Of a DNA stretch of 50,003 bases, positions 2,640 to 42,440 are shown in pieces. Source of the stretch: Candidatus Omnitrophota bacterium (GTDB lineage Bacteria > Omnitrophota > Gorgyraeia > Aquiviventales > Aquiviventaceae); NCBI GenBank assembly GCA_023247195.1, contig JAHFGY010000004.1, forward strand, positions 1-50,003. The letters run 5' to 3'. The position numbers were made by a program, and so were the translations under genes. A model generated the notes under the pieces. It was not told the origin of the DNA, searched no databases, and saw nothing but the letters and a program-made list of their open reading frames with translations. Numbering within the stretch: the first letter of the stretch is position 1; each line of letters begins with the position of its first letter.

Positions 2640-3626
2640 TCAGCTCAGCCCAAAAGCGTGCTTCACTTCCGCGATGGTCTTGCTCGCCACGGCGCGCGCC
2701 CGCTTGGCGCCGTCTTGCAGCAACACTTCGATCTTCTCGAAACCGCCGTCGCCGGCCAGTTTCTCGCGGGTCTCGCGGAACGGCCGCGTGAGTTCGACCA
2801 TAACCTCGGCCAGCTCGCGCTTGTTTTGGCTGCACCCGCGCTTGGACGTGCGGCACTCTTCCCACATAGCGGCGGCGCGATCCGGCGCGAATGTCTTCCA
2901 GTAGCCGCACACGTTGCAGGCTTCCGGGTGCCCGGGATCAGTCATTTTGATGCGCGTGGTGTCGGTCACCATCTTTTGGATGGCTTGCCTGAGCGCGTCA
3001 GCGTCCTGGTAGAGATTGAACGTATTGCCGTAGCTCTTGGACATCTTCCGGCCGTCGGCGCCGAGCAGCCGCGGCGACTCGGTCAGCAGCGGCTTAGGTT
3101 CCGGAAAGATTTCTTTCTTCAGCAAGAAATGCGCGCGCCGCACGATCTCTCGCGTGAGCTCCAGGTGCGGGAGCTGGTCTTCCCCGACCGGGACCGCGTC
3201 CGCCTTGTAGAGTAGGATATCCGCGGCTTGCAAAACCGGATAGCCCAAGAAACCATACGTGGTTAAATCGCGGCCTTCGATCTCGCGGAGCTGCTCTTTG
3301 TAGGTTGGGACGCGCTCAACCCAGCCAAGCGGCGTGATGATGGATAACACGGTGAAGAGCTCCGTGTGCTCGGGAACGTCGGACTGGCGGAAGATAACGC
3401 TCTTCTTGGGGTCGATGCCGGCGGCAAGCCAATCCACGACGTTCTCATAGCCCCACTGCCGGATCTTTTGCGGGTTTTCGTACTCGCCCATGAGCGCGTG
3501 CCAATCCGCGACCATGAAAAAGCACTCGTAAGACTCTTGGAGTTTCTTCCAGTTGGCAAGGGCGCCGACCAGGTGGCCCAGGTGGAGCTGCCCCGTGGGG
3601 CGCATACCGCTCAAAACGCGAGGCAT
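2640..3626 (-). CDS. trpS: Tryptophan--tRNA ligase
   Basis: Class I motifs are present: HLGH (GQLHLGHLVGAL) and KMSKS. I chose the ATG at 3626 (MPRVLSGMRPTG...); the track start at 3641 is a TTG. Confidence 0.95.
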   Translation of the reverse strand: MPRVLSGMRPTGQLHLGHLVGALANWKKLQESYECFFMVADWHALMGEYENPQKIRQWGYENVVDWLAAGIDPKKSVIFRQSDVPEHTELFTVLSIITPLGWVERVPTYKEQLREIEGRDLTTYGFLGYPVLQAADILLYKADAVPVGEDQLPHLELTREIVRRAHFLLKKEIFPEPKPLLTESPRLLGADGRKMSKSYGNTFNLYQDADALRQAIQKMVTDTTRIKMTDPGHPEACNVCGYWKTFAPDRAAAMWEECRTSKRGCSQNKRELAEVMVELTRPFRETREKLAGDGGFEKIEVLLQDGAKRARAVASKTIAEVKHAFGLS

Positions 3627-29173: not shown

Positions 29174-30207
29174 TATTCGGATGTCCTCTTTCCCACGCGC
29201 GCGCTCTTCTGCGCTCGAATGCGCTCGCGCAGCTCGTCCGGCGTGACCGTGGCCACGCCTACCTTGCCCACGACCACGCCCGCGGCAAAGTTTGCCAACT
29301 GGGCGGCTACGGGCTTGGACGCGCCGCAGGCCAGGGCCAAGGTGTAGGTGCCGATCACGGTGTCGCCGGCGCCGGCCACGTCGAAAACCGCTTGCGCCAT
29401 GGTCGGAATCCACGTGCGGCGGCCGCCACGCTCGAACAAACAAATGCCATCTTCCCCGAGCGTAATGAGCAAGCTCTCGCAATCCAGCTTGCGCAAGATG
29501 ATCTCGCCCGCCTTGTCGATGTCAGCCTGCGTCTTGAGCTCGAACCCGGCCGCTTGCCCGGCCTCAAGCCGGTTCGGCGTGAGGCACGTGACGCGCTTAT
29601 ATAAGTGGAAATGCTCTTGTTTGGGATCAACGGTGATGATTTTCTTGTGCTTGCGCGCCAGAGGAATCACCGCGGCCAGCAATGCCCGGCTGATCACGCC
29701 CTTGTTGTAGTCTTCAAGGATGATAGCGTCCACGTCTTGGATGCGCTCGCGCACCTGATCCACCAGCCGATCGATCAAGTCGGCCGGCAGCGCGTCGGCT
29801 TGCTCGCGGTCCACGCGCACAACCTGCTGGTGGTGCGCGATCACGCGCGTCTTGACCGTGGTCGGACGGTCGGTGCGGATCATGGATGTGGCGTCGATCT
29901 GCCGCGACGCGAGCCCACCGATCAGCAGCTCGCCGTAACGGTCCGTGCCCACGGCGCCGACGACCGAAACCTGGCCGCCGAGCGCGCGGATGTTGTTCGC
30001 CACGTTCGCGGCGCCGCCCGGCATGGTGGACTCGGACTGCACCCAAACGACCGGCACCGGCGCCTCGGGGCTGATGCGGCTCACTTTGCCCCAGAGGAAC
30101 TCGTCGAGCATCATGTCGCCGATCACAAGGACGCGGGCCTTTTCAAAGCGCGCAAGCAAGCGATCCACGCCGGCTAGCGCGAGCGGCTTGGGCGAGGCGG
30201 CCATCAC
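29173..30207 (-). CDS. hldA: D-glycero-beta-D-manno-heptose-7-phosphate kinase (RfaE domain I, PfkB family)
   Basis: VLVIGDMMLDEFLWGKVSRISPEAPVPVV N-terminus and the C-terminal PfkB signature DVAGAGDTVIG. No adenylyltransferase domain is fused. Confidence 0.85.
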   Translation of the reverse strand: MMAASPKPLALAGVDRLLARFEKARVLVIGDMMLDEFLWGKVSRISPEAPVPVVWVQSESTMPGGAANVANNIRALGGQVSVVGAVGTDRYGELLIGGLASRQIDATSMIRTDRPTTVKTRVIAHHQQVVRVDREQADALPADLIDRLVDQVRERIQDVDAIILEDYNKGVISRALLAAVIPLARKHKKIITVDPKQEHFHLYKRVTCLTPNRLEAGQAAGFELKTQADIDKAGEIILRKLDCESLLITLGEDGICLFERGGRRTWIPTMAQAVFDVAGAGDTVIGTYTLALACGASKPVAAQLANFAAGVVVGKVGVATVTPDELRERIRAQKSARVGKRTSE

Positions 30208-31139
30208 AGCTGCTCCGCCACGGCGCGGATCAAGAGCGGTATCAAGATTTCGTGATGCCCGGTGATATGGATCCCGCGGCCACCCAAAAGCGTCGGGCGC
30301 TTGAGAACGTTCTCATGCGGGCGGTAATGCCGGATCATGTCGAAATCGAATGCGGTGAAGTCCTTGACGCTGCTGCCGAGGTTGCGCGCAATGGACACGG
30401 CTTTTAGGAACACCTCCGGCAGAATCACGGCCGAGCCCAGGTTTCCCACCACGCCGCCCTGCCCCAACTGCGAAACCACGCCGATCAAGGTGCGGAAGTC
30501 GTGCAGCGATGTTTGGCCGATGGCCGCGCCGTCCGCGGAAGATTGCTGGTGGATGATGTCCGTGCCGATCGCAACGTGCACGGTCGCGGGAACGTCCATT
30601 TCCACGCAAGTCGCAAGCAGGCTCAAGCGACGATACGGAAGCTTTTTCTTGATGATCATGTGCCCCACGCTGCGGCCAAGCCCCCAGCCTTTTTTCGCGC
30701 CGTCGCGGATCGCAGCATTAAGCGTGGCGTGCGTTTCTTCTGCCATACCGAAAGAGCCGTCGGCGAGCGCAGACGCCACATCCTCGGAGGTGCTTCCCAT
30801 GAACGCGAGCTCGAAATCATGGATAACGCCCGCGCCGTTGAGCGCGATGCCGGTCACGATCTTGCGCTTAATGAGGTCGGTGAGGAGGGGGCTGAGGCCT
30901 ACCTTAATAACGTGCGCGCCGAACATGAAAAGGACCGGCTTTTTCTGCTTATGCGCGGCCGCGATGGCTTCGACGATGTACCGCAAGTCTTTTGCGGCAA
31001 GGATATTCGGCAGGGATTCGTAGAATTCGCGGAAGGTTCCACCCTTACGGCAAGGCCTTGCAAAGCTATCAAAACTGACCTTGCTCTTCCTGGAAGCGAC
31101 CGGGTAGGTCTTGAGTTTTGCCAGGTCGGGCGTAGGCAC
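30204..31139 (-). CDS. Conserved hypothetical protein, tentatively deoxyhypusine-synthase-like (DHS-like NAD-binding fold)
   Basis: 311 aa. FMFGAHVIKVGLSPLLTDLIKRKIVTGIALNGAGVIHDFELAFMG and ...VPATVHVAIGTDIIHQ resemble, in spacing and pattern, the DHS family core (..ltsnlissGlr..i..li....vd.ivttaGa.eeDl...). This assignment is from memory only. The only available start is the GTG at 31139. There is a 4-nt overlap with hldA. Confidence 0.4.
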   Translation of the reverse strand: MPTPDLAKLKTYPVASRKSKVSFDSFARPCRKGGTFREFYESLPNILAAKDLRYIVEAIAAAHKQKKPVLFMFGAHVIKVGLSPLLTDLIKRKIVTGIALNGAGVIHDFELAFMGSTSEDVASALADGSFGMAEETHATLNAAIRDGAKKGWGLGRSVGHMIIKKKLPYRRLSLLATCVEMDVPATVHVAIGTDIIHQQSSADGAAIGQTSLHDFRTLIGVVSQLGQGGVVGNLGSAVILPEVFLKAVSIARNLGSSVKDFTAFDFDMIRHYRPHENVLKRPTLLGGRGIHITGHHEILIPLLIRAVAEQL

Positions 31140-31144
31140 GGCAA

Positions 31145-31173
31145 ATTCTAGCAGAGGCTTCCAGGAGTGTCAA
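31145..31173 (-). promoter_or_regulatory. Near-consensus sigma70 promoter positioned for a leaderless transcript of the DHS-like/heptose/Kdo operon
   Basis: The minus strand reads TTGACA (31173..31168), a 17-nt spacer, TAGAAT (31150..31145), then TTGCC and the GTG start codon (31139). Confidence 0.45.
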
Positions 31174-31229
31174 TTACACACTCGACGTGCCTGAAAGCGC
31201 TCCCTCCGCCTGACTTATATGGTATATTT

Positions 31230-31235
31230 TATAAT
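31230..31235 (+). promoter_or_regulatory. Candidate -10 box (TATAAT) for the giant-gene leader
   Basis: A perfect TATAAT lies in the AT-rich tract 31211..31247. I found no convincing -35 at 16-18 nt (the nearest TGACTT-like hexamer is too close). Confidence 0.3.
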
Positions 31236-31247
31236 CAATATGTAAGT

Positions 31248-31391
31248 ACCGCCAAAGGCAAACCTGCGGTAACGCAGGGACGTCCCGCAAGCTTTGCTTC
31301 GCAAAGCGGGCTCGCGGGACCCCGCACGAAACTTCGCGCGGTGAAGTCGCGGGGCAAAGCTTCGGATCCCTTCTATTCTATAGGGACTGCC
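31248..31391 (+). ncRNA. Structured 5' leader / candidate riboswitch (GEMM-I-like 5' half)
   Basis: AAAGGCAAACC (31254..31264) is followed by the hairpin CCUGCG-GUAA-CGCAGG (31263..31278) and then GACG. A long hairpin follows: GUCCCGC(31282-88)/GCGGGAC(31314-20), enclosing GCUUUGC-uuc-GCAAAGC (31291..31307). A further hairpin is CCCCGC(31320-25)/GCGGGG(31349-54), enclosing ACUUC/GAAGU. The CGCAAAGC octamer is at 31300..31307 and a second GCAAAGC at 31354..31360. Confidence 0.45.
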
Positions 31392-31419
31392 AGGCTGCCG
31401 AAAAACCGGCAGCCTTTTT
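31392..31419 (+). terminator. Intrinsic terminator-like hairpin 8 nt upstream of the giant-gene ATG (candidate attenuator / expression platform)
   Basis: AGGCUGCCG-aaaaac-CGGCAGCCU (a 9-bp GC-rich stem) followed by UUUU. The U-run is present only on the plus strand. No plus-strand gene lies upstream that it could terminate. Confidence 0.6.
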
Positions 31420-31427
31420 CCTATAAG

Positions 31428-31541
31428 ATGCTAACGACCTATCGAAGAACAGAATTCAGAAAATTTCTCAGCGTTGTCTTAGCGGGCGTCGTTGCGCTTT
31501 CCAACACGCCGCTTCTCCTCGCTGCGCCTTCATCCAGCAGC
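31428..31541 (+). other. Predicted N-terminal signal peptide or membrane anchor of the giant protein
   Basis: A basic n-region (RRTEFRK), a ~22-aa hydrophobic core (FLSVVLAGVVALSNTPLLLAA), then a Ser/Pro-rich stretch. Confidence 0.55.
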
Positions 31542-34500
31542 AGTCTGCTTGCGCCCAGTCCAGCCAGCCAACTGCCGGGCCTTGAGGTCGCTTCCCTGCT
31601 CGATGAATTAGACACCGCCTACGGTTTCCCGCAATACCAACTCACCAGCGATATCACGAGCAAGAAAACGACGCTGGCATTGCAATTCGATGCTAAAGGC
31701 CTTGCGGCTTTTCAGCAAAACTCCCGAGAGTCTACCGGCGCCCACCTAGGTCTGACCGCCCTTGTACTAGGCTTGGCGCGACAGTATGCCTGGCAGAATC
31801 ACGCGTTTGACGAAGTTATTCGGACGTACGCGCAGGATCGGCAAATGACCGCAGCGGAGACGCAACAACTGCTGGCGAACGAAGACATCCTGAGGCTTGT
31901 GCTCACACCCAATGCGTATCTGGAAATCCTCCAACAGGCTGTGGTGGATTCGGGTTTGTTTCAATGCATAGTAGCCGCTCCAGACGACACTCCACATGAC
32001 CAACTCACCGCTCTCCGTCGGACCCTCGCCGACGATCTGCGCGCTTTTTTTCCCGGCGCGACGGTGTCCGATAACTGGTATCGATTCGCCCCATCGCCGA
32101 ACAGGTCAACGGAAAATGAGCCGGCGATGCGATGGTCCGGTCGAGGACTCTCTCCCAAACAGCATGAGATCGTTGATACCGTCATTGGCGACTATTTTTC
32201 AGGCGAGCAGCCCGGCCCCCTAGCCACAGAGCTTGATCAACAATCTTACGAATACAGCTACCTGGATCCGGACGGAATACTTGCAGATGCCGGCGTGCGT
32301 ATTTTATTTCTTGAAGGCCTTCTGGAGCGCATCCGTGAGGCTTGCGAGGCGGAGGGAGAAGAATTTCCTGAAGACCTGGCCATTCACCCGGCCCGCCAAC
32401 ACCGGACGCTGCTGCTGGACCCGACTCAGCATGAAGCCATTGCAAGACAGCCTATTGAATGGCGCGGCCGGCTGGCCCGTCATGAGCTGGCGCACATTGA
32501 GCATCCGGAGCTGACCGAAGAGCAAATTCAAGCGGTAGCGGAATGGGCAATCGGAGAAACCGATCCCAATGCATCGATGAGCGCGGTGGAAATAAGCCGG
32601 TCAGAGGACTTTGCCGCCGCGATGCGGGGCGTACCGGGAGGCAGCTATTCAAATAGTCAGCTGGCGGCTGCAGCCGGAATCGCTCGAGGAACTTATTCGC
32701 GGGTGCTTGCTTCGGAAAAAATCCGCCGCATTCATCAGGAAAACGAGCGCCGCAAGCGCGAGCAAACCGGGCTCGCTCCAATTATTCTCATCGACGTAAG
32801 CAATGAAGAGCTCCGAGAACAAACGCTGCGGGCGATCGACGAGCACGTGTCCGATATTCCGCCCGGGGATCACTTTCTGACAGACCTAAGCTCGTACCTT
32901 CATATCACCGCCATGACGATACATAAGCACGAGGCTTATATTCTCGCAAAAATCGCGGAATTGAACGCGCAGAAGAAATTACGGGACGAGCCCACGATAA
33001 ACATTATTTCACGGGGCGTGGTATGGAGAGTTCAACAAGCGCTCCCTACGACGAAAGGTGGCTCCTACTATTGGACGCAGCTTGCTGATCTTTGGGGCAT
33101 CGGCTGGGTAAGCCTCCAGAACCATTTGAAAGAAATTGAAGATTTGCTGGCCGTTGAAAATGAGCGGCGGAAGGAGGATCCGAAGGCAGTTCCCATTGAA
33201 ATTTTAAAGGCACCTGCCGCGGGCAGCGTATTGCAGAGTTTTGCAGAGGGATTACCGAACGTGGATCCTGGGATTTACTCGTTGGGGCGGTTGGCCGAAT
33301 TGGCGGGCTCTAGCTACGAGGTGATTTACCAATATCGAGATGAAGCCGCCGAACTTGTTTCCGCCGAGAATATTCGCCGAAGCGGACTTGTCACCCCCAT
33401 ACGCCCTATTGAAATCCGAGAGCTCGGCGATATCTTGCCTCGTATCGCGGCAGCGCTTCCCGGCATCGCACCGGGTTCCTACAGCCTGACCGCCTTCGCA
33501 CAAGCGGTAGGCGTGAGCCAAACATCGATCACGACCAACCTCACCGAAGTACAGAATTTGCTCGCTGCCCACAATCACGCTCGATCCAGTGCGGCAATAT
33601 TCCTGGAATCTCCCGTGATTTTTGAGCGGCTTTTGCACGATTATGCACCGGCCTTGCAGGAAGGCTTGCTTAATGAGGATTGGCTGCGGCGAGCGTTCTC
33701 TGCCGGCCCTGCCGGCGTATCCGAGCTGCTGAGCGAGCTCACGGACAGCGGCACGGCGTCCTTATGCCGAGTGCTGGTTCTCGTTGAATTGTACCCCTTC
33801 CTATTTGAGCGGCTATACGTGGACATGGATGACACCCTCTTCACCTCTCCGCTATTCGTCGGCAGCGAAGCATGGATACGGAGCGAATACGCCCTGCATG
33901 GGCGGCCAATCAGCCATCTGAAGAATGAAAAACGGCGAATCGAAGGATGGTTGATCCACTCCGGCGTTCCGTTTCAGGCCGTTGAGCCTCTTGTGCCGGA
34001 AAAACTCCTGCAAATCCAGCAGCGCTACCCGCACATTCAGATCATTGGCCTGACGGCGCGGGGCCAAGAAGACAGGTCAAATACGGAGTCGATTCTCAAG
34101 CAATTGGGACTGAGCATCGAGATTTTATACGGCGGGTCAAGCTACGGCAAGCGCCAGCAATGGAATCAAGCACGTACGGCGGCCGGAAGGCTGCAGACAA
34201 GCGGCACCGCAAATGCGCAACCCGAATCAGAGTCAGACGAAACCGACTCCGACGAAGACCAAAGCGCGGCGCAACCGGAAGACACTACCAGCGGCCAAAA
34301 CGAGCAGGCGCGCCGATGGTGGGTGCTCCTCGATGACGGCCTGGACAGGCTGGCGAAAAAACCTCAGCGAGAGAGCTGGCTTGATGAGCAGATCGCTGCG
34401 GTGGGATACGCCCCTCCCATTCGTTATGACTGGAGCGCCTCTCGAGACCACATGCTTCAAGACCTCGAATCGGGCGACCTCATCTCCAGTTGGCGCTGGG

Positions 34501-37500
34501 CCATGGACGCTCTGGCGCTCCTCAAATATGAACCGGATACCCGCAGGCGCCTGGAAACGCTCGCTCAAATTCAGGCGCTGGTCGTTGAACCGGCCTTTGC
34601 CAGAATGCAGGCCGAGCAACCCCACCCCGATGAGGTCGAAGGCATCGACCGCTTGCTCGTTGGTTATGTCGAAGCGGTAACCGCGCTGCTCGCGCAAGGG
34701 CCCGCCGAGTTGGCTGAAACAGTCGGCATCGATTGGACGGAATATGTCGCCTATAGCGCCTTTCTTATCCTGATGCCGAATAACGCGGAAGATTTCACGA
34801 ACGCCTACATGAACGGGCTTCTTCCAATCCGCGAAGTTAGCCGCCAGAGCCGCGGGCTTCCGGAAGCAAACTACTTTATTGAGATGACGCCAGAGAACAT
34901 TTTCCTCTTCATGGAACCGCTGATCCGCTACCTGCGGACGGAGAAGCCGAGCCTCGTGGTACTCCCGGACACCGGCGCCCGCCCTTTTTTCGACCTGCTC
35001 AATAAGGTGATTGAAGCTGAGGGGCTCCCGACAAAATTGCTGATTTTTCCGATAAGCCGGAACACGGCCAGCGACACTCTCTATGAGCTCAAGCTTTGGA
35101 TGACCAGCCAGCAAACCCGCTTCACAAGATTATTCCAAGGCATCGATCCTTCGGGTGTGGCCGGAAAGGATGTCGTGATCTTGGATGACAACATTACTTC
35201 AGGCGAGACGATTCTCATGCTCCAAACGCTTCTTAAGGACGTGTGGGGTGCAGGGACGATCGTAGGACTCACGCCGTTTGCGTACAGGCGAGGTTACCCC
35301 TTCCCGTTTATCGCCACATGCGTCTTGCCGGCTCAAGGTTTTGCATGGAGGCGCCAAAACCCGCCCGTCGTGGTGATCACACCCTGGGAGAATTCCCCCA
35401 CGTTGCGCGGTGCGGCCAGCCGCTCGCGATTTGAACGGCCGCCCGTCAAGCTAATACAAAGCCCGAAAAACCAAGCCGCGGCCATTGAGCGTTTGCAACA
35501 ATTTATGGGGGCGTACGGGGCCTCGAATAGGGATTTGACACTGACGCTCAAAGAGACGGCGGAAGAGCCTTTCCCCTTTATGGAAATCGCTGGCTCTTCT
35601 CAGAGCGCGGAGCCGTCTCCGTCGGAAGCGGAAAGATCGGAATCGATCGTGGCTATCCCTATCTCCAACTCCGTGGAACTTCGTGAGCTTGGACGCCGGC
35701 TCCCCGGATGGGTTCGCACGGAGTATGCGCTCACAAAGGAAGAGTTGCCGCATGCCACGGAACCCGGAACCATGCTCTACGAGATCTGGGACAAACAAAC
35801 GGATGAGCCGCTCGGATTGTGCATTCTCCTATGGGTCTGGGATGAGAATAATAACCGCAATATCCTGATCCGGAAAATTCAGCCCCGGATAGATGCCGAT
35901 GATCGAGTGGATCCGGTCCAGCTCATCGAAGGCATCCGCAACTGGCTAGAGACCGAACCCATCGACCTGCACGCGCTCCTGATCGATGCGAACAGCATCA
36001 CAATGACCCGGGTCTCGGAGTCGCACCGGGTCCGGGCGCTGATCAATGACGCCTATGCCTCGCATCCCAGGGTGCGCGACCAATTGACAACCCAGGGCTA
36101 TGCGCATCCGTGGATAGGCCAAGCCAATGTTGTTTTCATAAAACGGCTCACGCCAGAAGAAAGAGCGCGGATAGCCGAAGGAAGGGCGCTGCTTGAAAAT
36201 ATCAGCCAATCGCGCTTGAACCGCATTCTTCACCCTGATTTGCTGTCGCAATTCAATGATGCGTCCATCCTTTTGAATAGCGGGCTTCCTCCCAGCGAGG
36301 AGGACCTTGCCCTTCTGCGCGTCTTGCAAAGGCATGACGCGCTGTTGCGATACGCGGCTTCCGCAGAAGCCAAGCGTAATCCTGAACAACTGGAACGATA
36401 CGGCACACGCATTCTTTATGACTCGCTTGTCGAGGCTTCAGAGCTTTCCGGCGAGCGCTTGAGCTTTCCGGAAGGCTTTTTTGAAGGGGATTACGGGCGG
36501 GTTCGAGCGGAGGAAGCATTCCTGTACTACATCCAAAATATTTGGGAGGACGGGTACCACCTCGGCCAATTGCGAACCGCGGATTTGCGCCAATACGGGC
36601 TGGGTCCCGCCCTACGGCTCCATTTCAATAATGACCGCGGAGCTCTGATCGAGTTTCTCTGCCCGGGAGGTTACGTCCAATCCGGAAAAAACCGGTACCG
36701 CCCAAATCCTGAACAAGAGGTGACATCCAGGATGTGGGCGCACTTCATGGCGGGCGAATGGTGGACGATCGCTCCCGGAGCGCGGTATACGCTCAAGGCA
36801 AATGACAAAGCGGGCGATCGCTATCGAGGCCTGGTAGCTTCATTCGAGGTGAACGCGAATCATGGGCCGATCGCGATCCTGCGGGATGTGGCCGGCGTTG
36901 AACACGCTATAGCGCATCAAGTTGACCAAAGTCACGTGGCTTCCACCTCGGTTCGTCTTGCGAAATATCGGCTATTCAAACGAAAATCCACCGCGGGACC
37001 GCTATTAGCCGCACTCAATATCCACCGTTGGCTGGCGGGCCACCACATCCAGGTTTCCGCGGAAATGCAGCCCGTCACAATGCCCTCTCAGCAGGTGAAC
37101 CAACTCATGAGGTGGCGATCCGTCAAGGGCGTCAATAAACTCTATAATCCCGCCGTTAGTCTGGTGCCCGAGCAAGATCCAGCCTTGGGAACGGTTTTGA
37201 GAATTTATGCGCCTCAGCCCGGTAAGGAACTTGCCGAAGCAGACTTGGTCGGTATCTGTTTCCGCGACTCGAATGGAGTGATCATCTATGAAACCCTCGC
37301 GGAACAACTGGGGGCGGTTGATATCGACGCCTGGATTCGCGGGCTACCTGTCACTCCCCTGGCGCGCAGCGGCAATTTCTTTCGACTGAGCCAAACCGGT
37401 CAACTACTCGCTCAGCTTCCGGGGAATCGGAAAAGCCGTCCGGTTTCCGTGGATAGCAGCTATGCCAATCAAATCGTTTTTGCCCGCCTTGAAAATCATG

Positions 37501-40500
37501 CGGCCTACGGAACCCTTTTAGCCGTCTATCCTGTTGATCCAACAACGGGGATAGTGCAGAGCAACCAAAGGATCCGTGCCTACGCCTGGGTTGAGGATGA
37601 GCTGCGGGCATTGGCCGGAGGGATTGTTCCATACGAAGAACAGTTTCCTACCCCCTCACCGGAGTTCTCATCGGATGAGGCTCAGTCAAAAGAAGGGGAT
37701 CACCCCGATGAAGCAGTCTCGCTTCCTGAGCCGCGGGAGGGAGACGCGGTCCGCGCAGAGCGAGGAGGTGTTTGGAGAAACACGACTATTCTTCGCATTG
37801 TCCCGGGGAAGTATATATTTGTTTCATGGAGAAATGTCGAACTCGGCATACCGTGGGAGAAAATTCAAACCCATCTTCAAAGAGCGGACGGAAGCCCGCT
37901 TATGCAATCTGAGGAAAGCAGTCCCGAGACGGATTCGGCCGCATCGGCTCCTCCGGAAGAAACACTGCTCCTTTCCCAGGTTGCTTTTAGCGATTCATCC
38001 ACCGGAGAAAAAATCGTATCTCTCCTTGCTGATAAGGACATCCGGACAGTCGCGGATCTTCTCGCCCGCGGGGCCGATCCGTTTATTGCCGTTGATGATG
38101 GCTATGCTCTTAACCGGGATGATTGGCAGGAATTGGACCTCGCCCTGGGCTTGCTCGGCGCTCCGATCCTTATGGATCCCGCAGCCACGGCCGATTCAGA
38201 TTCAACCGAGTCTCTTCCCATCCAGGGGCCCCTGCGCAAGTCGCGCGTGATTTACGGACTTTGGAGGCTGCATATTCTCAGCCTGTCCGAACTGGCACAC
38301 CGATTCGATAGGGCGCGCCCTGCCCTGGCCGCATCCCTCAGCCCCGATGAACTGCTCCGCGTTGAAGATTGGCTAACAGAACAAGGCTACGCAATCGTCT
38401 CTGAGCCAGTTGAACCGGCATATCTGCCAAGCCACCAGACATTCTCCACAAGCCGGATCAGAAGAATGATTCAAGCCATTCTGCCTGATTTTCCAGGCGG
38501 CGAATTCACTTACAAGGAATTCTCGGAATTGACGGGGATTGATCCCGCAACGATCAGCACTAACCGCGTCCTTATCGACCAATTGGTCGCCGCAGAAAAT
38601 GCGATCCGTGAGCGAGCCAGCCGGCAAACCATCCGCTTGGGAGAAGATATCCTGCAAAAGATTGAGGGTTTATTGCCTGAGACCCCCGGAGGGGAATATA
38701 CGCTGAAGGACTTGGGCGGGCTGTGGGGGCTATCGCCCCCGACGCTGGCGAAATACAGAGAAGAAATAGACTTGCTGGTGGAACAAGAGAACAACGACCC
38801 CGGAAGAGAAAGCCCCGAGGATGAGATCCAACTCTATGAGCCAGACCCTCTTGTCCGTATTGCGGCGGCATTCAAAGAAGTCCGGGGAGGAACGTACTCG
38901 GCCGAAAAACTGGCAAGAGCCCTTCATACCGCCTTACCAACCTTCAACAAATATGAGGCTGAAATTCTGGCTTTACTCGAGAAAGAGAATGAGTCGCTGA
39001 AGACCCAGGGAAAGCCACAAATTGAATATCGCCCCCGAGCTGTTCTCAAAAGAATCCGGGCTGACTTGCCGAACCTGCCCGGGGGCAACTACTCCATCAA
39101 GAGCTTCTCGGAGGCCATGGTGATAACAAGATCGAGCGTGCCAAAATTTGAGCCTGAAATCCAAGCGATGATCATAGAAGTGAACGCCTTGCGAAAAGAA
39201 CAACAGCGCACAGACTTTATCCACTTATCGGCGCAACCCGCGGTGAATACGTCAGAAATTCTATTCGACGAAATTATACAGAGAATTTCTACAATTCCCG
39301 CCGGCGAATATACCTGGTCAGGTCTTGCTAGGGAATTGAAGGCGGGCAAGGGCTATGTTATTGGAAAACAGAAAAAACTGACGACTGTTATAGCTGCTGA
39401 TAATGTTGCCCGCGAGAAACGCAACGAGGGCCCTATCGTGATAATCGCTCCTGATCGCATGGAGGACCTTGCGGCACGATTACCAAAGGTGCAGGGTAAG
39501 GTATACCAAATGAAGGATTTCGCGGAAGCGGTGGGCATTTCTCAAAGCGTGCTCAATAGGCACAGCACCGAAGTCGATGCGCTCCTGCTCACTGACAACA
39601 TCCGGCGTAAAGCAGCAAACGAGCCGGAAATCGCCCTCTGGGAGCAGGATTCTTTTTTGAAAATCGAGCAGCTAATCCCCTCCCTTGCGGGCGGCTGGTA
39701 CTCATTTGATGATCTAGCGGAACTCGTCCATGCGCATCGAAAAACGCTTGCCAGTTATGCGGATGAGATTGAACGTCTCATGGGTGCCGAGAATCTGAAG
39801 CGTCGCCAAGCCGGGCGCAAGGATTTTATTTTCTTGTTACGAAAACCTGTTTTACCGCGTGTGAGGCAAGTTCTTCCTTGGCTGGACGGAGGGACTTATT
39901 CGTGGGAAGACCTGGCGGCCGCCACAGGGCTGGAAGCCAAGACTCTTTCATATAATTACCGCGACGCAGTCTTGGAGATCATTGCGGCTGAGAATCTGAA
40001 CCGGTCACCGGATAATCAGATCATTTTGCTATCGAAGCAATCTCCTTCTTCCCAAGCGCTCGCGGGACGATTCGACGGAGCCGACCTACGCCAGGCGGAG
40101 CCGATCGAAGACGCTGAAACAACCCAGCTTATCGATGCGGCCGGCGTTATTTCAGAGAACTTCAAAGACGTGCTTGGCGGGGTCGAAGCCGAGCTCCCGG
40201 CGCTCCAGCAGCAGACGGATCAGCAAGAGGAGCCTCTCTCCGGAAAGAAAAAGCTGACGTTTAAGCTCGTGGCTTTCCGGAATGCGGCAGGCGAGATTGA
40301 GGCCCGCGGACCTTACATCCAGCGCACCGGTTCGGTGATCTACTTGAACGCCGGGCGCGCTGACCTGAGCGTAGAAAACAAGCGGAGAGCGCTGAAGCAC
40401 GACATCATCGGTCATGACTGGCAGCTCTTAATGGATACTTTGGGCTACGCATCTCCGGAGAAAATTCCGCATGCCATTGCCGAGGCGTTCGGCCTCTATA

Positions 40501-41366
40501 TGGGCGAGTTTTCGGATATATCTGATACCGAGGAGCGCATTGAACTCGTGCTAGCCATTCTGGAGCAGAGGCTGGGGATGGTTATCCCTGTGAATGGAGA
40601 ACCGGCGTCAATGACAGCCGCTCCTTCTCAGGCTGACTTCTGTCCCTCGCTGCTGCATTCGAGAAACCCCACCCGCGCCCTGCCCCGCCATGAAATTGCG
40701 GATGCGCTTCGGAAGCTGCCCGATATCCAGACTTTGTACATTGAACATGCCAACCCGATTACAGCGACGAGCATCCGGAACAAACTTTTGAACACTGGCT
40801 TAACGCATATCCGGCAGCTGGAAGAGCTGACACCGGAAGAACTCAATGCCCTACTGGGTCGCAGGGCGGATGAAGCTGCAGTGATGGCTATTGAAGCGGC
40901 TCTGCAAAGGCTCGGCAAATCACTCAGCGCCTTCGACTCTATCGACACGTTGAAAATTCCCGGGACCTCGGACCGTCAGCGCACGCGTCTGCTAATCATT
41001 CTCAAATCAAATGGCATCCTGACGATTCCCAAGCTGCTGGAAACGCCCGACGCCAAATTGGAAGGTATTCTTGCGGGGGCTTCAATGATCGGTGAAACAC
41101 CGATTAACTATCTGATGCTGCGGATCCGAGAGCTTAGGGATGCCACCCCGATGAAACCTTCATCCACGCAAGCGGCGATGATTCATGTGGGTGTGAACGC
41201 GACCGGGATACCTTCCTTCAGCGCTGAAGGGCAGTCGGAACTGGATCAACTGCTTGCGCAGATGTGCAGCAGCTTGAACAACACCATGGAAAATCCGACA
41301 GAAGACCTGGAACTGCTGATCAAGAACTGGCAAAGGCAGCGCGAAGAAATCGAATCAAGCGGCTAG
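31428..41366 (+). CDS. Giant (~3,312 aa) mosaic protein of unknown function with signal peptide/anchor, HExxH motif, 13 HTH-like repeats, HAD-like, PRTase-like and alphaCTD-like HhH modules
   Basis: An uninterrupted ORF is open from 31167. I chose the ATG at 31428 because it is followed directly by a signal-peptide-like sequence (MLTTYRRTEFRKFLSVVLAGVVALSNTPLLLAAPSSSS). The region upstream contains promoter elements and RNA hairpins. No Shine-Dalgarno is evident, so the start is uncertain. The stop TAG is at 41364..41366. Confidence 0.85.
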   Translation: MLTTYRRTEFRKFLSVVLAGVVALSNTPLLLAAPSSSSSLLAPSPASQLPGLEVASLLDELDTAYGFPQYQLTSDITSKKTTLALQFDAKGLAAFQQNSRESTGAHLGLTALVLGLARQYAWQNHAFDEVIRTYAQDRQMTAAETQQLLANEDILRLVLTPNAYLEILQQAVVDSGLFQCIVAAPDDTPHDQLTALRRTLADDLRAFFPGATVSDNWYRFAPSPNRSTENEPAMRWSGRGLSPKQHEIVDTVIGDYFSGEQPGPLATELDQQSYEYSYLDPDGILADAGVRILFLEGLLERIREACEAEGEEFPEDLAIHPARQHRTLLLDPTQHEAIARQPIEWRGRLARHELAHIEHPELTEEQIQAVAEWAIGETDPNASMSAVEISRSEDFAAAMRGVPGGSYSNSQLAAAAGIARGTYSRVLASEKIRRIHQENERRKREQTGLAPIILIDVSNEELREQTLRAIDEHVSDIPPGDHFLTDLSSYLHITAMTIHKHEAYILAKIAELNAQKKLRDEPTINIISRGVVWRVQQALPTTKGGSYYWTQLADLWGIGWVSLQNHLKEIEDLLAVENERRKEDPKAVPIEILKAPAAGSVLQSFAEGLPNVDPGIYSLGRLAELAGSSYEVIYQYRDEAAELVSAENIRRSGLVTPIRPIEIRELGDILPRIAAALPGIAPGSYSLTAFAQAVGVSQTSITTNLTEVQNLLAAHNHARSSAAIFLESPVIFERLLHDYAPALQEGLLNEDWLRRAFSAGPAGVSELLSELTDSGTASLCRVLVLVELYPFLFERLYVDMDDTLFTSPLFVGSEAWIRSEYALHGRPISHLKNEKRRIEGWLIHSGVPFQAVEPLVPEKLLQIQQRYPHIQIIGLTARGQEDRSNTESILKQLGLSIEILYGGSSYGKRQQWNQARTAAGRLQTSGTANAQPESESDETDSDEDQSAAQPEDTTSGQNEQARRWWVLLDDGLDRLAKKPQRESWLDEQIAAVGYAPPIRYDWSASRDHMLQDLESGDLISSWRWAMDALALLKYEPDTRRRLETLAQIQALVVEPAFARMQAEQPHPDEVEGIDRLLVGYVEAVTALLAQGPAELAETVGIDWTEYVAYSAFLILMPNNAEDFTNAYMNGLLPIREVSRQSRGLPEANYFIEMTPENIFLFMEPLIRYLRTEKPSLVVLPDTGARPFFDLLNKVIEAEGLPTKLLIFPISRNTASDTLYELKLWMTSQQTRFTRLFQGIDPSGVAGKDVVILDDNITSGETILMLQTLLKDVWGAGTIVGLTPFAYRRGYPFPFIATCVLPAQGFAWRRQNPPVVVITPWENSPTLRGAASRSRFERPPVKLIQSPKNQAAAIERLQQFMGAYGASNRDLTLTLKETAEEPFPFMEIAGSSQSAEPSPSEAERSESIVAIPISNSVELRELGRRLPGWVRTEYALTKEELPHATEPGTMLYEIWDKQTDEPLGLCILLWVWDENNNRNILIRKIQPRIDADDRVDPVQLIEGIRNWLETEPIDLHALLIDANSITMTRVSESHRVRALINDAYASHPRVRDQLTTQGYAHPWIGQANVVFIKRLTPEERARIAEGRALLENISQSRLNRILHPDLLSQFNDASILLNSGLPPSEEDLALLRVLQRHDALLRYAASAEAKRNPEQLERYGTRILYDSLVEASELSGERLSFPEGFFEGDYGRVRAEEAFLYYIQNIWEDGYHLGQLRTADLRQYGLGPALRLHFNNDRGALIEFLCPGGYVQSGKNRYRPNPEQEVTSRMWAHFMAGEWWTIAPGARYTLKANDKAGDRYRGLVASFEVNANHGPIAILRDVAGVEHAIAHQVDQSHVASTSVRLAKYRLFKRKSTAGPLLAALNIHRWLAGHHIQVSAEMQPVTMPSQQVNQLMRWRSVKGVNKLYNPAVSLVPEQDPALGTVLRIYAPQPGKELAEADLVGICFRDSNGVIIYETLAEQLGAVDIDAWIRGLPVTPLARSGNFFRLSQTGQLLAQLPGNRKSRPVSVDSSYANQIVFARLENHAAYGTLLAVYPVDPTTGIVQSNQRIRAYAWVEDELRALAGGIVPYEEQFPTPSPEFSSDEAQSKEGDHPDEAVSLPEPREGDAVRAERGGVWRNTTILRIVPGKYIFVSWRNVELGIPWEKIQTHLQRADGSPLMQSEESSPETDSAASAPPEETLLLSQVAFSDSSTGEKIVSLLADKDIRTVADLLARGADPFIAVDDGYALNRDDWQELDLALGLLGAPILMDPAATADSDSTESLPIQGPLRKSRVIYGLWRLHILSLSELAHRFDRARPALAASLSPDELLRVEDWLTEQGYAIVSEPVEPAYLPSHQTFSTSRIRRMIQAILPDFPGGEFTYKEFSELTGIDPATISTNRVLIDQLVAAENAIRERASRQTIRLGEDILQKIEGLLPETPGGEYTLKDLGGLWGLSPPTLAKYREEIDLLVEQENNDPGRESPEDEIQLYEPDPLVRIAAAFKEVRGGTYSAEKLARALHTALPTFNKYEAEILALLEKENESLKTQGKPQIEYRPRAVLKRIRADLPNLPGGNYSIKSFSEAMVITRSSVPKFEPEIQAMIIEVNALRKEQQRTDFIHLSAQPAVNTSEILFDEIIQRISTIPAGEYTWSGLARELKAGKGYVIGKQKKLTTVIAADNVAREKRNEGPIVIIAPDRMEDLAARLPKVQGKVYQMKDFAEAVGISQSVLNRHSTEVDALLLTDNIRRKAANEPEIALWEQDSFLKIEQLIPSLAGGWYSFDDLAELVHAHRKTLASYADEIERLMGAENLKRRQAGRKDFIFLLRKPVLPRVRQVLPWLDGGTYSWEDLAAATGLEAKTLSYNYRDAVLEIIAAENLNRSPDNQIILLSKQSPSSQALAGRFDGADLRQAEPIEDAETTQLIDAAGVISENFKDVLGGVEAELPALQQQTDQQEEPLSGKKKLTFKLVAFRNAAGEIEARGPYIQRTGSVIYLNAGRADLSVENKRRALKHDIIGHDWQLLMDTLGYASPEKIPHAIAEAFGLYMGEFSDISDTEERIELVLAILEQRLGMVIPVNGEPASMTAAPSQADFCPSLLHSRNPTRALPRHEIADALRKLPDIQTLYIEHANPITATSIRNKLLNTGLTHIRQLEELTPEELNALLGRRADEAAVMAIEAALQRLGKSLSAFDSIDTLKIPGTSDRQRTRLLIILKSNGILTIPKLLETPDAKLEGILAGASMIGETPINYLMLRIRELRDATPMKPSSTQAAMIHVGVNATGIPSFSAEGQSELDQLLAQMCSSLNNTMENPTEDLELLIKNWQRQREEIESSG
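32481..32495 (+). other. HExxH motif (HELAH) within the giant protein
   Basis: The context is WRGRLARHELAHIEHPELTEEQ (ORF aa 439-443). This is a bare motif with no recognised surrounding peptidase fold. Confidence 0.3.
32610..33611 (+). repeat. Array 1: five tandem ~65-aa HTH-like protein repeats (R1-R5)
   Basis: The units contain GVPGGSYSNSQLAAAAGIARGTYSRVL..IHQENERRK; IPPGDHFLTDLSSYLHITAMTIHKHEAYILAKIAELNAQKK; TKGGSYYWTQLADLWGIGWVSLQNHLKEIEDLLAVENERRK; VDPGIYSLGRLAELAGSSYEVIYQYRDEAAELVSAENIRR; and IAPGSYSLTAFAQAVGVSQTSITTNLTEVQNLLAAHNHAR. Confidence 0.8.
33804..34361 (+). other. HAD-superfamily-like module in the giant protein
   Basis: Motif I is YVDMDDTLF (DxDxT, aa 886-890). Motif II is IIGLTARG. 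A Lys is present in YGKRQ. Motif IV-like is WWVLLDDGLD. An acidic Ser/Asp/Glu linker (ESESDETDSDEDQ) is inserted before motif IV. Confidence 0.55.
34950..35291 (+). other. Type-I phosphoribosyltransferase-like module in the giant protein
   Basis: A canonical PRPP-binding loop, GKDVVILDDNITSGETILML (aa 1333-1352, nt 35172..35210 for VVILDDNITSGET), is preceded by LVVLPDTGARPFFDLL (PPi-loop-like). Confidence 0.6.
37983..38402 (+). other. Two RpoA-alphaCTD-like helix-hairpin-helix modules (central)
   Basis: STGEKIVSLLADKDIRTVADLLARG...DDWQELDLALGLLG and SRVIYGLWRLHILSLSELAHRF...LSPDELLRVEDWLTEQGY follow the pattern x-R-x-x-N-x-L-x-x-x-x-I-x-T-hxxL...eL..h...G..s..ei...L...Gh. Confidence 0.4.
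38451..40037 (+). repeat. Array 2: eight tandem ~65-aa HTH-like protein repeats (R6-R13)
   Basis: For example LPDFPGGEFTYKEFSELTGIDPATISTNRVLIDQLVAAENAIRE; LPETPGGEYTLKDLGGLWGLSPPTLAKYREEIDLLVEQEN; EVRGGTYSAEKLARALHTALPTFNKYEAEILALLEKENE; LPNLPGGNYSIKSFSEAMVITRSSVPKFEPEIQAMIIEVNALRK; IPAGEYTWSGLARELKAGKGYVIGKQKKLTTVIAADNVAREKR; VQGKVYQMKDFAEAVGISQSVLNRHSTEVDALLLTDNIRRK; LAGGWYSFDDLAELVHAHRKTLASYADEIERLMGAENLKRR; and LDGGTYSWEDLAAATGLEAKTLSYNYRDAVLEIIAAENLNR. Confidence 0.85.
40674..41141 (+). other. Two RpoA-alphaCTD-like helix-hairpin-helix modules (C-terminal)
   Basis: ITATSIRNKLLNTGLTHIRQLEELTPEELNALLGRRADEAAVMAIEAALQRLGKSL closely parallels the alphaCTD pattern (..svRsaNcLk.agI.tigdLv.kteeeLl.i.nfGkkSl.EIkekL.elGlsL). 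A second copy is LKIPGTSDRQRTRLLIILKSNGILTIPKLLETPDAKLEGILAG. Confidence 0.55.
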
Positions 41367-42440
41367 CGCCGCCAGCGCCGCAGAATGCACTTCCTCAACG
41401 GAAAGCTCGGTCAGGCACTTAAAGGCGATGTCGCAGTTGTGCGCCAGGCAGACCTCGCAGCCCACCTCTTTATGCAGGATCACATGCCCCTGCCCCACCG
41501 GACCCCAGCGCTTGGGCGATAGCCCGGCTTGGTTTCGGCCGAAGATAACCACTACTTTTGTTCCGACCGCGGCGGCCAAGTGAACCGGGCCGGAATCATT
41601 TGAGATCAAGAGCTTGGCGCGCGCAAGAACCGCGATGAGTTCGGCGATCGAAAGCTGTCCGGCCAGGTTGACCGACGGCGAGCGCATAGCGCGGGCAACC
41701 GCGTCCGCGTGCGGCTTATCTTCCTTCCCCGCCACGAGAACAATGCGCAGCCCTGGTGCCGCCAGCTTGTCGGCGACCGCGGCGAAGCGCTCAGGCATCC
41801 ATCGTTTCGACACGCAGCTGGCGGACGGGTGCACCGCGACGAAGGTGGCCCCTGCCGGCACACCCGCGGCTTGCAAGCGCTGCGTGACGCGCGCGGCCGC
41901 TTCCGGCTGAACAGCGACGAAAGGCTCCGGCGGCCCCGGCTGCACGCCGAAAACGCGCAGCATTTCCACCGCGTATTCGGACTCGTGCTTCTGGCCTTCC
42001 TGCTTGGTGTGCGGCACGCGGTGCGTCAAAAGCCACGGTTGCTTGCGGTCGTAACCGACGCGGCGCCGAATACCGGCCAGGAATGGGATCCAATGCGCGC
42101 GGTTGCTCGGGTGCAGCACAAGCGCGGTGTCGAAACGGTGAGGCCGCAGGCTCCGCGCGAACGCGACCGTTGCCAGCGGCGAGCGGTGCTTCCCTTCCTT
42201 GTCGTAAGCAAGAACCGCGTTTACGTCCGGGTTCCCGGTGACGACATCGCGGCACGCTTCGCGCACGAGCACGCCGATATAAGACTGCGGCCACGCGCGG
42301 CGCGCGGCGCGCAGCACCGCGGTGGAAAGCGCCACGTCGCCGATGCGGTCGAGCCGCACGACGAGCAAGCGTCGTGGCGCGTCGAGCACCTGTCTGGGCG
42401 GCTCAAGCGGTTTGGCGGATAGACTGTCCGGGCTTTCCAT
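41355..42440 (-). CDS. Glycosyltransferase family 9 (ADP-heptose:LPS heptosyltransferase-like)
   Basis: LLVVRLDRIGDVALSTAVLRAARRAWP N-terminus and C-terminal LLISNDSGPVHLAAAVGTKVVVIFG ... C.xC ... motifs typical of GT9. The 3' end overlaps the giant ORF by 12 nt. A GTG at 42389 is an alternative start. Confidence 0.85.
   Translation of the reverse strand: MESPDSLSAKPLEPPRQVLDAPRRLLVVRLDRIGDVALSTAVLRAARRAWPQSYIGVLVREACRDVVTGNPDVNAVLAYDKEGKHRSPLATVAFARSLRPHRFDTALVLHPSNRAHWIPFLAGIRRRVGYDRKQPWLLTHRVPHTKQEGQKHESEYAVEMLRVFGVQPGPPEPFVAVQPEAAARVTQRLQAAGVPAGATFVAVHPSASCVSKRWMPERFAAVADKLAAPGLRIVLVAGKEDKPHADAVARAMRSPSVNLAGQLSIAELIAVLARAKLLISNDSGPVHLAAAVGTKVVVIFGRNQAGLSPKRWGPVGQGHVILHKEVGCEVCLAHNCDIAFKCLTELSVEEVHSAALAALAA

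Follow-up and report, generated by a model that had tools for sequence, protein, structure and literature searches.

The DNA considered here, referred to below as the window, comprises 50,003 nucleotides (nt) at positions 1 to 50,003 of contig JAHFGY010000004.1, from the Candidatus Omnitrophota bacterium assembly GCA_023247195.1. Its forward strand carries a gene for a giant modular protein of 3312 to 3399 amino acids (aa), in which a unit of about 65 aa is repeated thirteen times. The copies form two arrays, of five and eight units, which flank a HAD-like and a phosphoribosyltransferase-like (PRTase-like) module and are separated by 1600 residues of other modules (Table 1). The repeat is read here as a new domain family of the helix-turn-helix (HTH) clan, unusual in architecture and cellular context, with the window's own units borderline members by sequence. 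HTH domains are archetypal cytoplasmic DNA binders; in the window, HTH-derived domains are found polymerised behind a signal-peptide-like segment, and it is proposed here that the arrays may hold a polymeric ligand, most likely nucleic acid, outside the cytoplasm.

Three iterations of a profile hidden Markov model (HMM) delimited exactly 13 units of 63-75 aa each, five at aa 481-825 (array 1, nt 32607-33641) and eight at aa 2434-2961 (array 2, nt 38466-40049). This bears out the first-pass annotation of the window, which had placed thirteen copies at 32610..33611 and 38451..40037 and whose consensus agrees with that obtained with MAFFT from the 13 units, xIxxxLPxxxGGxYSxxxLAxxxGxxxxTxxxxxxEIxxLxxxENxxRxxxxxxxIxL. 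A phmmer search seeded with a single unit found 12 of the 13, missing unit 2, and gave a weak extra match at aa 2203-2250. As a guard against circular scoring, an HMM built from 12 units was used to score the thirteenth, with 500 shuffles per unit as control. The left-out units scored 24.6-60.1 bits, the weakest being units 2 and 10, and the best shuffle never exceeded 11.0 bits, so that the self-similarity on which the annotation depended is statistically significant.

Table 1. Features of the giant gene and its 5' surroundings; bit scores of units are leave-one-out values.
Feature	Position (nt)	Strand	Protein	Remarks
Conserved protein in the lipopolysaccharide-core cluster	30204-31139	-	311 aa	weak deoxyhypusine-synthase-like Pfam match, E 1.2e-3; 75% identical in L001
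Near-consensus sigma-70-type promoter-like site	31173-31145	-		TTGACA, 17 nt, TGnTAGAAT; 11 of 12 matches
Longest open reading frame, giant protein	31167..41366	+	3399 aa	GTG start; 3399 codons
G+C-rich hairpin followed by TTTTT	31392-31415	+		9 bp; ends 12 nt before ATG 31428
Coding sequence of the giant modular protein	31428..41366	+	3312 aa	probable start ATG 31428
Signal-peptide-like N-terminus	31428..31529	+		basic n-region (RR..R.K), hydrophobic core FLSVVLAGVVALS, LLLAAP, Ser-rich linker
Unit 1, array 1	32607..32831	+	aa 481-555	36.0 bits
Unit 2, array 1	32832..33026	+	aa 556-620	31.2 bits; degenerate (PPGDHF for GG.YS; LN for EN)
Unit 3, array 1	33027..33236	+	aa 621-690	60.1 bits
Unit 4, array 1	33237..33440	+	aa 691-758	38.7 bits
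Unit 5, array 1	33441..33641	+	aa 759-825	50.0 bits
HAD-like module (Pfam DUF2608) between the arrays	33819..34121	+	aa 885-985	DxDxT-type motif YVDMDDTLF
PRTase-like module	34941..35243	+	aa 1259-1359	VVILDDNITSGETI; sub-threshold Pribosyltran
Possible degenerate solo copy, outside the 13	37758..37919	+	aa 2198-2251	phmmer domain E 0.031; segment-versus-self E 0.0025
Unit 6, array 2	38466..38657	+	aa 2434-2497	49.9 bits
Unit 7, array 2	38658..38855	+	aa 2498-2563	48.2 bits
Unit 8, array 2	38856..39050	+	aa 2564-2628	45.4 bits
Unit 9, array 2	39051..39269	+	aa 2629-2701	46.0 bits
Unit 10, array 2	39270..39464	+	aa 2702-2766	24.6 bits; most degenerate
Unit 11, array 2	39465..39659	+	aa 2767-2831	54.6 bits; first of the three-unit model
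Unit 12, array 2	39660..39857	+	aa 2832-2897	54.1 bits; also modelled alone
Unit 13, array 2	39858..40049	+	aa 2898-2961	52.0 bits; in the three-unit model

The units share a mean aa identity of 25% (range 14-41%) and, in codon-threaded alignment, a mean nt identity of 39% (maximum 48%), which argues that the amplification is old; Tandem Repeats Finder detected no array at the DNA level. Identity is equal within the two arrays (23.5% and 25.1%) and between them (24.7%). The arrays are not an assembly artefact, because an independent assembly in ENA contains the same 3399-aa protein with just 7 internal substitutions. The repeat is thus confirmed as a real and ancient amplification, as had been supposed from the divergence of the copies. 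Beyond the two arrays, no internal repeats were found in the giant protein except a weak solo match, VPGKYIFVSWRNVELGIPWEKIQTHLQR, about 180 residues upstream of array 2. It is devoid of the EN..R helix and may be a decayed fourteenth copy.

Structures were predicted with AlphaFold2 (AF2) for unit 12 alone, from an alignment of 51 units, and for units 11-13, from 14 multi-unit stretches without overlap, aligned in register, of which nine come from relatives. The single unit reached a predicted local distance difference test score (pLDDT) of 93.2 and a predicted template modelling score (pTM) of 0.77; for the three units the values were 90.8 and 0.55. In the unit 12 model, helix H1 spans residues 2-8, strand β1 12-14, H2 16-23, H3 27-31, H4 34-50 and β2 57-59, and in all modelled units the same order is predicted: H1, β1 ('GG.YS'), H2, a 3-residue turn, a short H3, a long H4 with E-N-x-x-R, a linker and β2 ('I.L'). 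The H4 motif reads E-N-x-x-R in the window and E-N-x-R-R in relatives. A tri-helical HTH core, defined by H2 and H3 joined through a tight turn of 3-4 residues, is present in unit 12 and in every unit of the three-unit model. The would-be recognition helix H3 has only about five residues and is followed by the 17-residue H4. There is no β-hairpin wing behind H3, as a winged helix would have; instead, H4 and the single strand β2, pairing with β1, are predicted. The pair is taken to form inside one unit because both strands persist in the isolated-unit model. No rigid superhelix is predicted, the pTM of three units being just 0.55, and in the models the units are beads on a string, with short linkers (often Pro-rich in relatives) and without a solenoid. 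Together with the sequence matches considered below, the models make it well supported that each of the 13 units is a domain of about 65 aa that folds independently and derives from the HTH/winged-helix superfamily.

These predictions bear on two ideas of the first-pass annotation, that the unit is HTH-like and that consecutive units might wind into a superhelix. The helix, 3-residue turn and helix of the first came out as supposed; of the second nothing was seen, the domains being closed. A generic α-solenoid was not found either: Pfam gave no TPR, HEAT, Sel1 or ankyrin match at E up to 1, and the units have two β strands and four helices. It was also proposed that the arrays read sequence in the manner of a transcription activator-like effector (TALE) or another solenoid. 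Such a model assumes that the 13 units are stacked as a superhelix round nucleic acid, each reading one or a few bases, and the presence of 13 tandem HTH-like units with hypervariable surface positions on H3 would agree with it. However, each unit is predicted to be an α/β mini-domain closed by the pairing of its β1 and β2, the geometry between units is not confidently predicted, and the length of unit and linker varies from 63 to 75 aa. The units share about 25% identity, and high entropy is spread over most surface columns instead of being concentrated in one or two code residues. The split into 5 and 8 by 1600 residues of other modules and the acidic charge of the arrays also disagree with it. 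Column statistics and array charge (conservation in the core, the turn and E-N-x-x-R, a hypervariable H3 surface, acidic arrays) exclude a TALE-type code reader, and a solenoid reader of any kind is hardly credible.

The kinship with HTH domains was analysed by sequence profiles and by structure comparison. When 51 single units were compared with Pfam, 10 matched HTH_20 (best E 5.6e-5) and nearly all other matches were to HTH-clan families. With the whole giant protein, HTH_3 reached 27.3 bits (cut-off 23), a score summed over weak stretches none of which is significant alone. The summed scores of two relatives are higher, P0002 matching HTH_20 with 65.7 bits (E 3.6e-18), MarR_2 with 49.6, HTH_11 with 39.1 and TetR_N with 33.9, and P0003 matching HTH_20 with 54.9 bits. 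Profile searches of the PDB gave weak matches (best E 0.028-0.034), almost all of them to HTH proteins (MerR, TetR, ArsR, MarR, SinR, HipB and LuxR-type) and in the same columns. The unit profile was aligned by hhalign to Pfam-validated MerR_1, HTH_11-type and HTH_7 arrays with probabilities of 93.5%, 92.6%, 89.9% and 86.2% over columns 1-38. Several points weigh against the assignment. These hhalign values are optimistic, since the targets had been pre-selected with the same profile, and no single unit of the window exceeds a Pfam gathering threshold. Foldseek found no significant match in the PDB, the best E being 2.5 for one unit and 0.4 for three. Its low-deviation partial matches were to SmtB, MntR, the BirA N-terminus, VraR/LiaR and MecR2, over 36-43 columns at a root-mean-square deviation of 2.3-3.9 Å and a template modelling score for the query (TMq) of about 0.4. 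As Foldseek gave no significant match, the HTH assignment is founded on summed or weak sequence signals and on topology.

It could be argued from the same data that the unit shares no ancestry with HTH domains and is a convergent small helical domain whose weak matches are generic patterns summed over repeats. The sub-threshold scores of single units, Foldseek E values that are all 0.4 or higher, the modest E values of the PDB profile searches and a C-terminal half, H4 and β2, for which HTH domains have no counterpart would fit such an origin. Nevertheless, Pfam, the PDB profile search, hhalign and the partial Foldseek superpositions, four methods independent of one another, place the HTH matches on the same columns, about 8-38, and H1-β1-H2-turn-H3 is the canonical N-terminal topology of a winged helix. 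Convergence is therefore regarded as improbable. Our reading of the predicted fold is that the unit is an HTH-derived domain with a novel C-terminal elaboration, in which H4 and β2 would replace the wing, and that the complete fold is without a solved counterpart. No family-specific match giving the repeat a name was obtained from Pfam, NCBIfam or PHROGs (0 matches in the last), as the first-pass annotation had also been unable to assign one, and a sequence search of the PDB with the whole giant protein gave 0 matches at E up to 1.

The 13-unit profile was run exhaustively with HMMER against 1.84 billion representative proteins and matched 58 of them at E <=1e-3. Full-length units with the E-N-x-x-R helix occur in about 22 clusters of these representatives, in 1 to 13 or more copies, and a contig scan with the giant protein found no relatives among GTDB species representatives. 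No member seen has more copies than the window protein, which shares the highest number, and in no other were two separate arrays seen. Family members are labelled 'hypothetical', with the single exception of an 'AraC-like' label in IMG; by source annotation P0005 (MBP9854679.1) comes from Candidatus Omnitrophota and P0008 from Elusimicrobiota. In P0005, at least 12 units, about 12-20 in all, lie directly upstream of an SNF2 ATPase domain. The partner modules are highly diverse, and by eye also include methyltransferase-, glycosyltransferase- and kinase-like segments. It is well supported that this is a rare, unannotated domain family of large multi-module proteins from uncultured Omnitrophota-like bacteria.

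The other matches among the 58 are unrelated, uncharacterised metagenomic proteins with ordinary HTH domains in tandem (P0006, P0010, P0013-P0016 and P0018). P0006 contains at least 10 MerR_1 units (375.7 bits), P0010 about 12 HTH_7 units, and the others 3-8 units of HTH_11 or HTH_17 type. Since such unrelated MerR_1 and HTH_7 arrays exist, the polymerisation of HTH units is not in itself unique. Tandem polymerisation had been called highly unusual, which holds for the rarity of the present family and is overstated for HTH arrays in general. Long HTH arrays appear as a recurrent but unstudied architecture in metagenomic proteins.

The cellular location of the arrays depends on the start of the gene. 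Gene callers chose the GTG start listed in Table 1, and the ATG at 31428 is the probable real start, because a signal-peptide-like segment lies directly behind it and because a promoter-like site and a hairpin fall inside the 87-codon extension. The promoter-like site is on the minus strand, within the annotated 5' end of the giant open reading frame, and is directed at the 311-aa gene and pfkB-kdsB-pyrG; the hairpin is a terminator-like or attenuator-like structure in what would be the 5' leader of the giant gene. Directly behind the ATG, MLTTYRRTEFRKFLSVVLAGVVALSNTPLLLAAP has a basic n-region followed by a hydrophobic core, the pattern of a Sec signal peptide in the sequence and in a hydropathy scan. 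Beyond its N-terminus the giant protein has a single borderline stretch above the hydropathy threshold. The signal peptide noticed in the first-pass annotation is thus present, in signal-peptide-like form, if ATG 31428 is the start. A similar start is seen in most family members having a complete N-terminus: N-terminal hydrophobic segments exceed the hydropathy threshold in the window protein, P0003, P0011, P0012, P0017 and P0064, and are seen in the sequences of P0005, P0009, P0022, P0027, P0028, P0036, P0041, P0043 and P0055. From the sequence and hydropathy we infer a signal-peptide-like N-terminus, an export-type signal by which the giant protein would leave the cytoplasm.

A different location would follow if the hydrophobic stretch were only an anchor with the bulk of the protein in the cytoplasm, or if translation began at GTG 31167; the arrays could then bind the cell's own chromosome. 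The choice of the gene callers, the normally cytoplasmic nature of HAD, PRTase and, in P0005, SNF2 modules, and the fact that the export signal comes from sequence and hydropathy rather than from a signal-peptide predictor would be compatible with this. However, the hydrophobic core has four basic residues in front of it and an acidic or Ser-rich stretch behind it, for which the positive-inside rule predicts N-in, C-out. The same N-terminal design recurs in most relatives with a complete N-terminus, and the strong divergent promoter-like site and the hairpin occupy the 87-codon 5' extension. Moreover, published work on giant proteins of Omnitrophota predicts cytosol-type enzyme domains outside the membrane. 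A cytoplasmic or membrane-anchored binder of the producer's own DNA is consequently considered very unlikely.

In the 51-unit alignment, the conserved columns are the hydrophobic core, the G11-G12 turn, T/S15, T29, and E44, N45 and R48, N45 being the same in all 51 units. Among the structural elements of the window units, H3 alone has a positive mean charge (+0.92), and the arrays of several relatives are strongly basic, with isoelectric points (pI) of 10-11.7. Asn and Arg, when conserved, are typical residues for contacting nucleic acid. On this basis our best guess, with a probability of roughly 0.4, is that the arrays are multivalent tethers for nucleic acid or another polymer. In its favour are the descent from HTH domains, the fusion to SNF2 in P0005, the relatives with basic arrays and the conservation of Asn and Arg. 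In the proposed mechanism, many weak and individually diversified HTH-type surfaces of one array would be summed by avidity, and the arrays would keep a polymeric ligand near the enzyme-like modules. The site of action would lie outside the cytoplasm, whether in the periplasm, at the surface of the cell, or on or inside prey or host cells. The arrays would not be code readers with one unit per base. For both ligand and avidity we depend on inference, and the single most likely class of ligand would be nucleic acid, as extracellular or prey DNA or RNA.

Much in the data weighs against a nucleic acid tether. The exposed positions of H3 are the most variable columns, with an entropy of 3.0-3.7 bits, and no common recognition surface is conserved. 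The arrays of the window are net acidic (-7 and -11, pI 5.9 and 5.4) and only 4 of the 13 units have a pI above 9. The first-pass annotation had named the lack of a basic surface as a sign that would speak against its reading, and with two acidic arrays this sign is partly seen. Residues E44, N45 and R48 and the G11-G12 turn can be explained structurally, by an intrahelical salt bridge and loop capping, without a ligand. An exported site is not where DNA-binding domains normally act. Nor does the neighbourhood offer a functional hint, as no operon partner is conserved across relatives, their neighbours being lipopolysaccharide (LPS) genes, alanine dehydrogenase (AlaDH), a sulfotransferase or nothing conserved.

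It is quite possible, if somewhat less so than the tether, that the HTH domains have taken on a new role, that of a passive stalk or spacer or that of a scaffold between proteins, in which they would present the enzyme-like modules or dock partners without any nucleic acid. There are precedents for both roles, since Ig-like and cadherin-like repeats serve as spacers in adhesins, many winged-helix domains have protein-protein roles, and tandem winged helices of ESCRT-II, ScpB/MukE and cullins serve in docking. The conservation is confined to the core hydrophobics, the GG turn and an E-N-x-x-R that is possibly purely structural, with hypervariable surfaces, and relatives differ in copy number, having from 1 to 13 or more units. 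Net charge per array spans -11 to +29 across the family, which argues against one common polyanionic ligand. Also consistent with a spacer or scaffold are the position of the arrays between unrelated enzyme-like modules, their probable exported location and the AF2 picture of discrete domains in flexible relative orientation (pTM 0.55). On the other hand, small helical HTH domains have no known role as extracellular spacers, H3 keeps its net positive charge, and an Asn invariant in 51 of 51 units exceeds the conservation found in most spacer domains. The SNF2 fusion and the basic arrays of several relatives point to DNA.

A bolder form of the tether model can be considered. In it the arrays would form a new class of multivalent module that is exported and binds nucleic acid; with it, host-dependent or predatory Omnitrophota would capture extracellular or prey DNA or RNA, or target the prey nucleoid after delivery, and would bring nucleic acid beside nucleotide-processing modules (the HAD-like phosphatase, the PRTase-like module and, in a relative, the SNF2 motor). 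This is unlikely as it stands; if true, it would describe a bacterial 'nucleomodulin' or a nucleic-acid-scavenging polyprotein made from a previously unrecognised HTH-derived domain. The significance of the repeat does not depend on this form alone. A new domain family missed by current libraries accounts for about 870 'dark' residues here and for similar regions of about 20 further protein clusters. It is an HTH-derived domain with, as predicted, an added fourth helix and closing strand, polymerised up to 13-20 times, and it is found in large proteins of a host-dependent phylum that is little understood. Binding of nucleic acid by the arrays beyond the cytoplasm of the producing cell, if it occurs, would point to a new way for ultra-small predatory or epibiotic bacteria to handle prey DNA; if they are scaffolds, the arrays would be a clean bacterial example of HTH re-purposing.

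Of the other modules of the giant protein, DUF2608 scores 26.1 bits on the isolated segment (cut-off 22.6) and 21.3 bits on the whole protein, and Pribosyltran reaches E 2.9e-4 and 20.6 bits (cut-off 26.3), with NCBIfam PRTase matches that are weak and sub-threshold. Outside these two modules and the arrays, nothing was matched in Pfam, NCBIfam, PHROGs or PDB sequences. By eye, two regions, near aa 2290-2420 and 3190-3330, resembled the C-terminal domain of the RNA polymerase α subunit or a helix-hairpin-helix; the idea was dropped because the best Pfam match of the isolated segments was IMS_HHH_1 with E 0.21.

All genes on either side lie on the opposite strand and are of LPS-core or housekeeping type: pyrG, kdsB, a pfkB kinase, three heptosyltransferases of glycosyltransferase family 9 (GT9), GT4 enzymes and a lipid-A acyltransferase-ELM1 fusion. 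Identity to metagenome-assembled genomes (MAGs) of Candidatus Omnitrophota is 77% for pyrG and 75% for the adjacent 311-aa gene. G+C content is 53-58% in the giant gene (32001-42000) and 60-66% in the flanks; the low value is consistent with a foreign origin or with a different compositional constraint. Next to the 311-aa gene, the closest MAG, L001 (489-7127), has at the syntenic position not the HTH-repeat gene but a small gene of SRPBCC-like type and one for a 1937-aa protein resembling SpvB/TcdB/RHS toxins. In a more remote genome (L083-L085; 38% identity in the GT4-GT9 fusion) the repeat family is represented by P0064, a protein of 1241 aa encoded between the heptosyltransferases and pfkB-kdsB. 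Judged from gene content, the LPS-core cluster seems to offer a variable place for genes of large exported proteins.

Two further observations concern the relatives. In those bearing signal peptides, a motif [A/S/P/T]-G-[L/Q/A/M/V/T]-E-E (AGLEE, AGQEE, SGLEE) separates modules. It is carried by P0003, P0011, P0012, P0017, P0022, P0023, P0027, P0028, P0041 and P0055, with 11 copies in P0041 (2736 aa) and 7 in P0017, where about 0.04 would be expected by chance. Its first copy stands just behind the signal peptide, and copies are found on either side of the HTH arrays. The nearest to it in the window protein is PGLEVAS only, at aa 138-144 (nt 31578-31598). The motif has the look of a signal for processing, or of a linker, in exported proteins of polyprotein-like build; a search of literature full text for 'AGLEE' returned nothing relevant. 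The second observation is that many relatives end in ...AA (VDVAA, LLEAA, AIAA, LLLAA and SASAA, in P0017, P0023, P0027, P0041 and P0002), which recalls C-terminal non-polar degrons or sorting tails; the window protein is without such an end and terminates in ...EIESSG.

Among known systems, the winged helices of ArsR-SmtB and MarR type (HTH_20, MarR_2, HTH_11; SmtB, 1smt; BirA, 1bia) have the same order of H1, β1, H2, tight turn and H3 and share with the units the pattern I..AL...PGG.LT..ELA..LG.S..TL. They are the best Pfam matches of the relatives and of single units, and partial superposition on the units extends over 36-43 columns at 2.3-3.1 Å, a Foldseek result that is not significant. 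Unlike them, the predicted units have an H3 of about five residues, H4 with E-N-x-x-R and β2 in place of a wing, and no dimerisation or effector domain, and they are polymerised 13-fold behind a signal-peptide-like segment. The short recognition helix followed directly by a long α4 is found in TetR_N, which also has the 'GVS..TLY.H' type of motif in common with the units; TetR_N is matched in P0007 (43.5 bits), P0064 (36.9) and, as noted above, P0002, and TetR structures occur often among the Foldseek matches. In contrast to TetR, the units have no ligand-binding core after α4, possess a predicted β1/β2 sheet, and stand in tandem in a protein with an export-type signal.

In architecture the window protein resembles the bona fide tandem HTH arrays of P0006, P0010 and P0013/P0016, in which HTH units of about 60-70 aa likewise follow head to tail and whose HTH core is aligned with the unit at the hhalign probabilities of 86-94% discussed above. 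P0013/P0016 have HTH_11-type units with the same H1-LP..GG.LT lead-in as the window units. All these arrays differ in lacking the H4 E-N-x-x-R helix and the β2 tail and in their strong Pfam scores, and no signal peptides were noted in them. Several winged-helix domains in a row, acting on one partner, are also found in the C-terminal four-domain array of SelB (1wsu), in ESCRT-II and in ScpB/MukE. These have two to four units with canonical wings and are cytoplasmic. The SelB C-terminal domain appears in the Foldseek list of the three-unit model, at a non-significant E of 0.93. A literature search for tandem HTH or winged-helix repeats in secreted proteins gave nothing relevant.

TALE proteins (RipTAL/Bat) resemble the window protein in having many tandem helical repeats and in being secreted, as the window protein would be. 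Their units have 33-35 aa and two helices, are nearly identical except for two code residues, and form a continuous superhelix. The units of the window are closed domains of about 65 aa with about 25% identity and no predicted superhelix, and on both counts they depart from a TALE reader.

In biological setting the window protein resembles the 'Archaeovorins' and other very long proteins of Omnitrophota (10.1101/2023.11.21.568195; 10.64898/2026.06.07.730766). Archaeovorins have tens of thousands of residues, HEAT and TPR repeats and multiple transmembrane segments (10.1101/2023.11.21.568195). The repeats described for giant proteins of the phylum are HEAT, TPR, WD, dockerin and thrombospondin, with HTH or other DNA-binding repeats unmentioned; they are old at the DNA level, and HAD is among the enzyme domains listed (10.1101/2023.11.21.568195; 10.64898/2026.06.07.730766). 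Unlike the Archaeovorins, the window protein has 3312-3399 aa rather than 30 thousand or more, and no HEAT or TPR match. It is nevertheless of the same phylum and likewise joins an N-terminal export or anchor signal to internal repeats and a mosaic of cytosol-type enzyme domains, so that Omnitrophota origin, export signal and enzyme mosaic are all found together in it.

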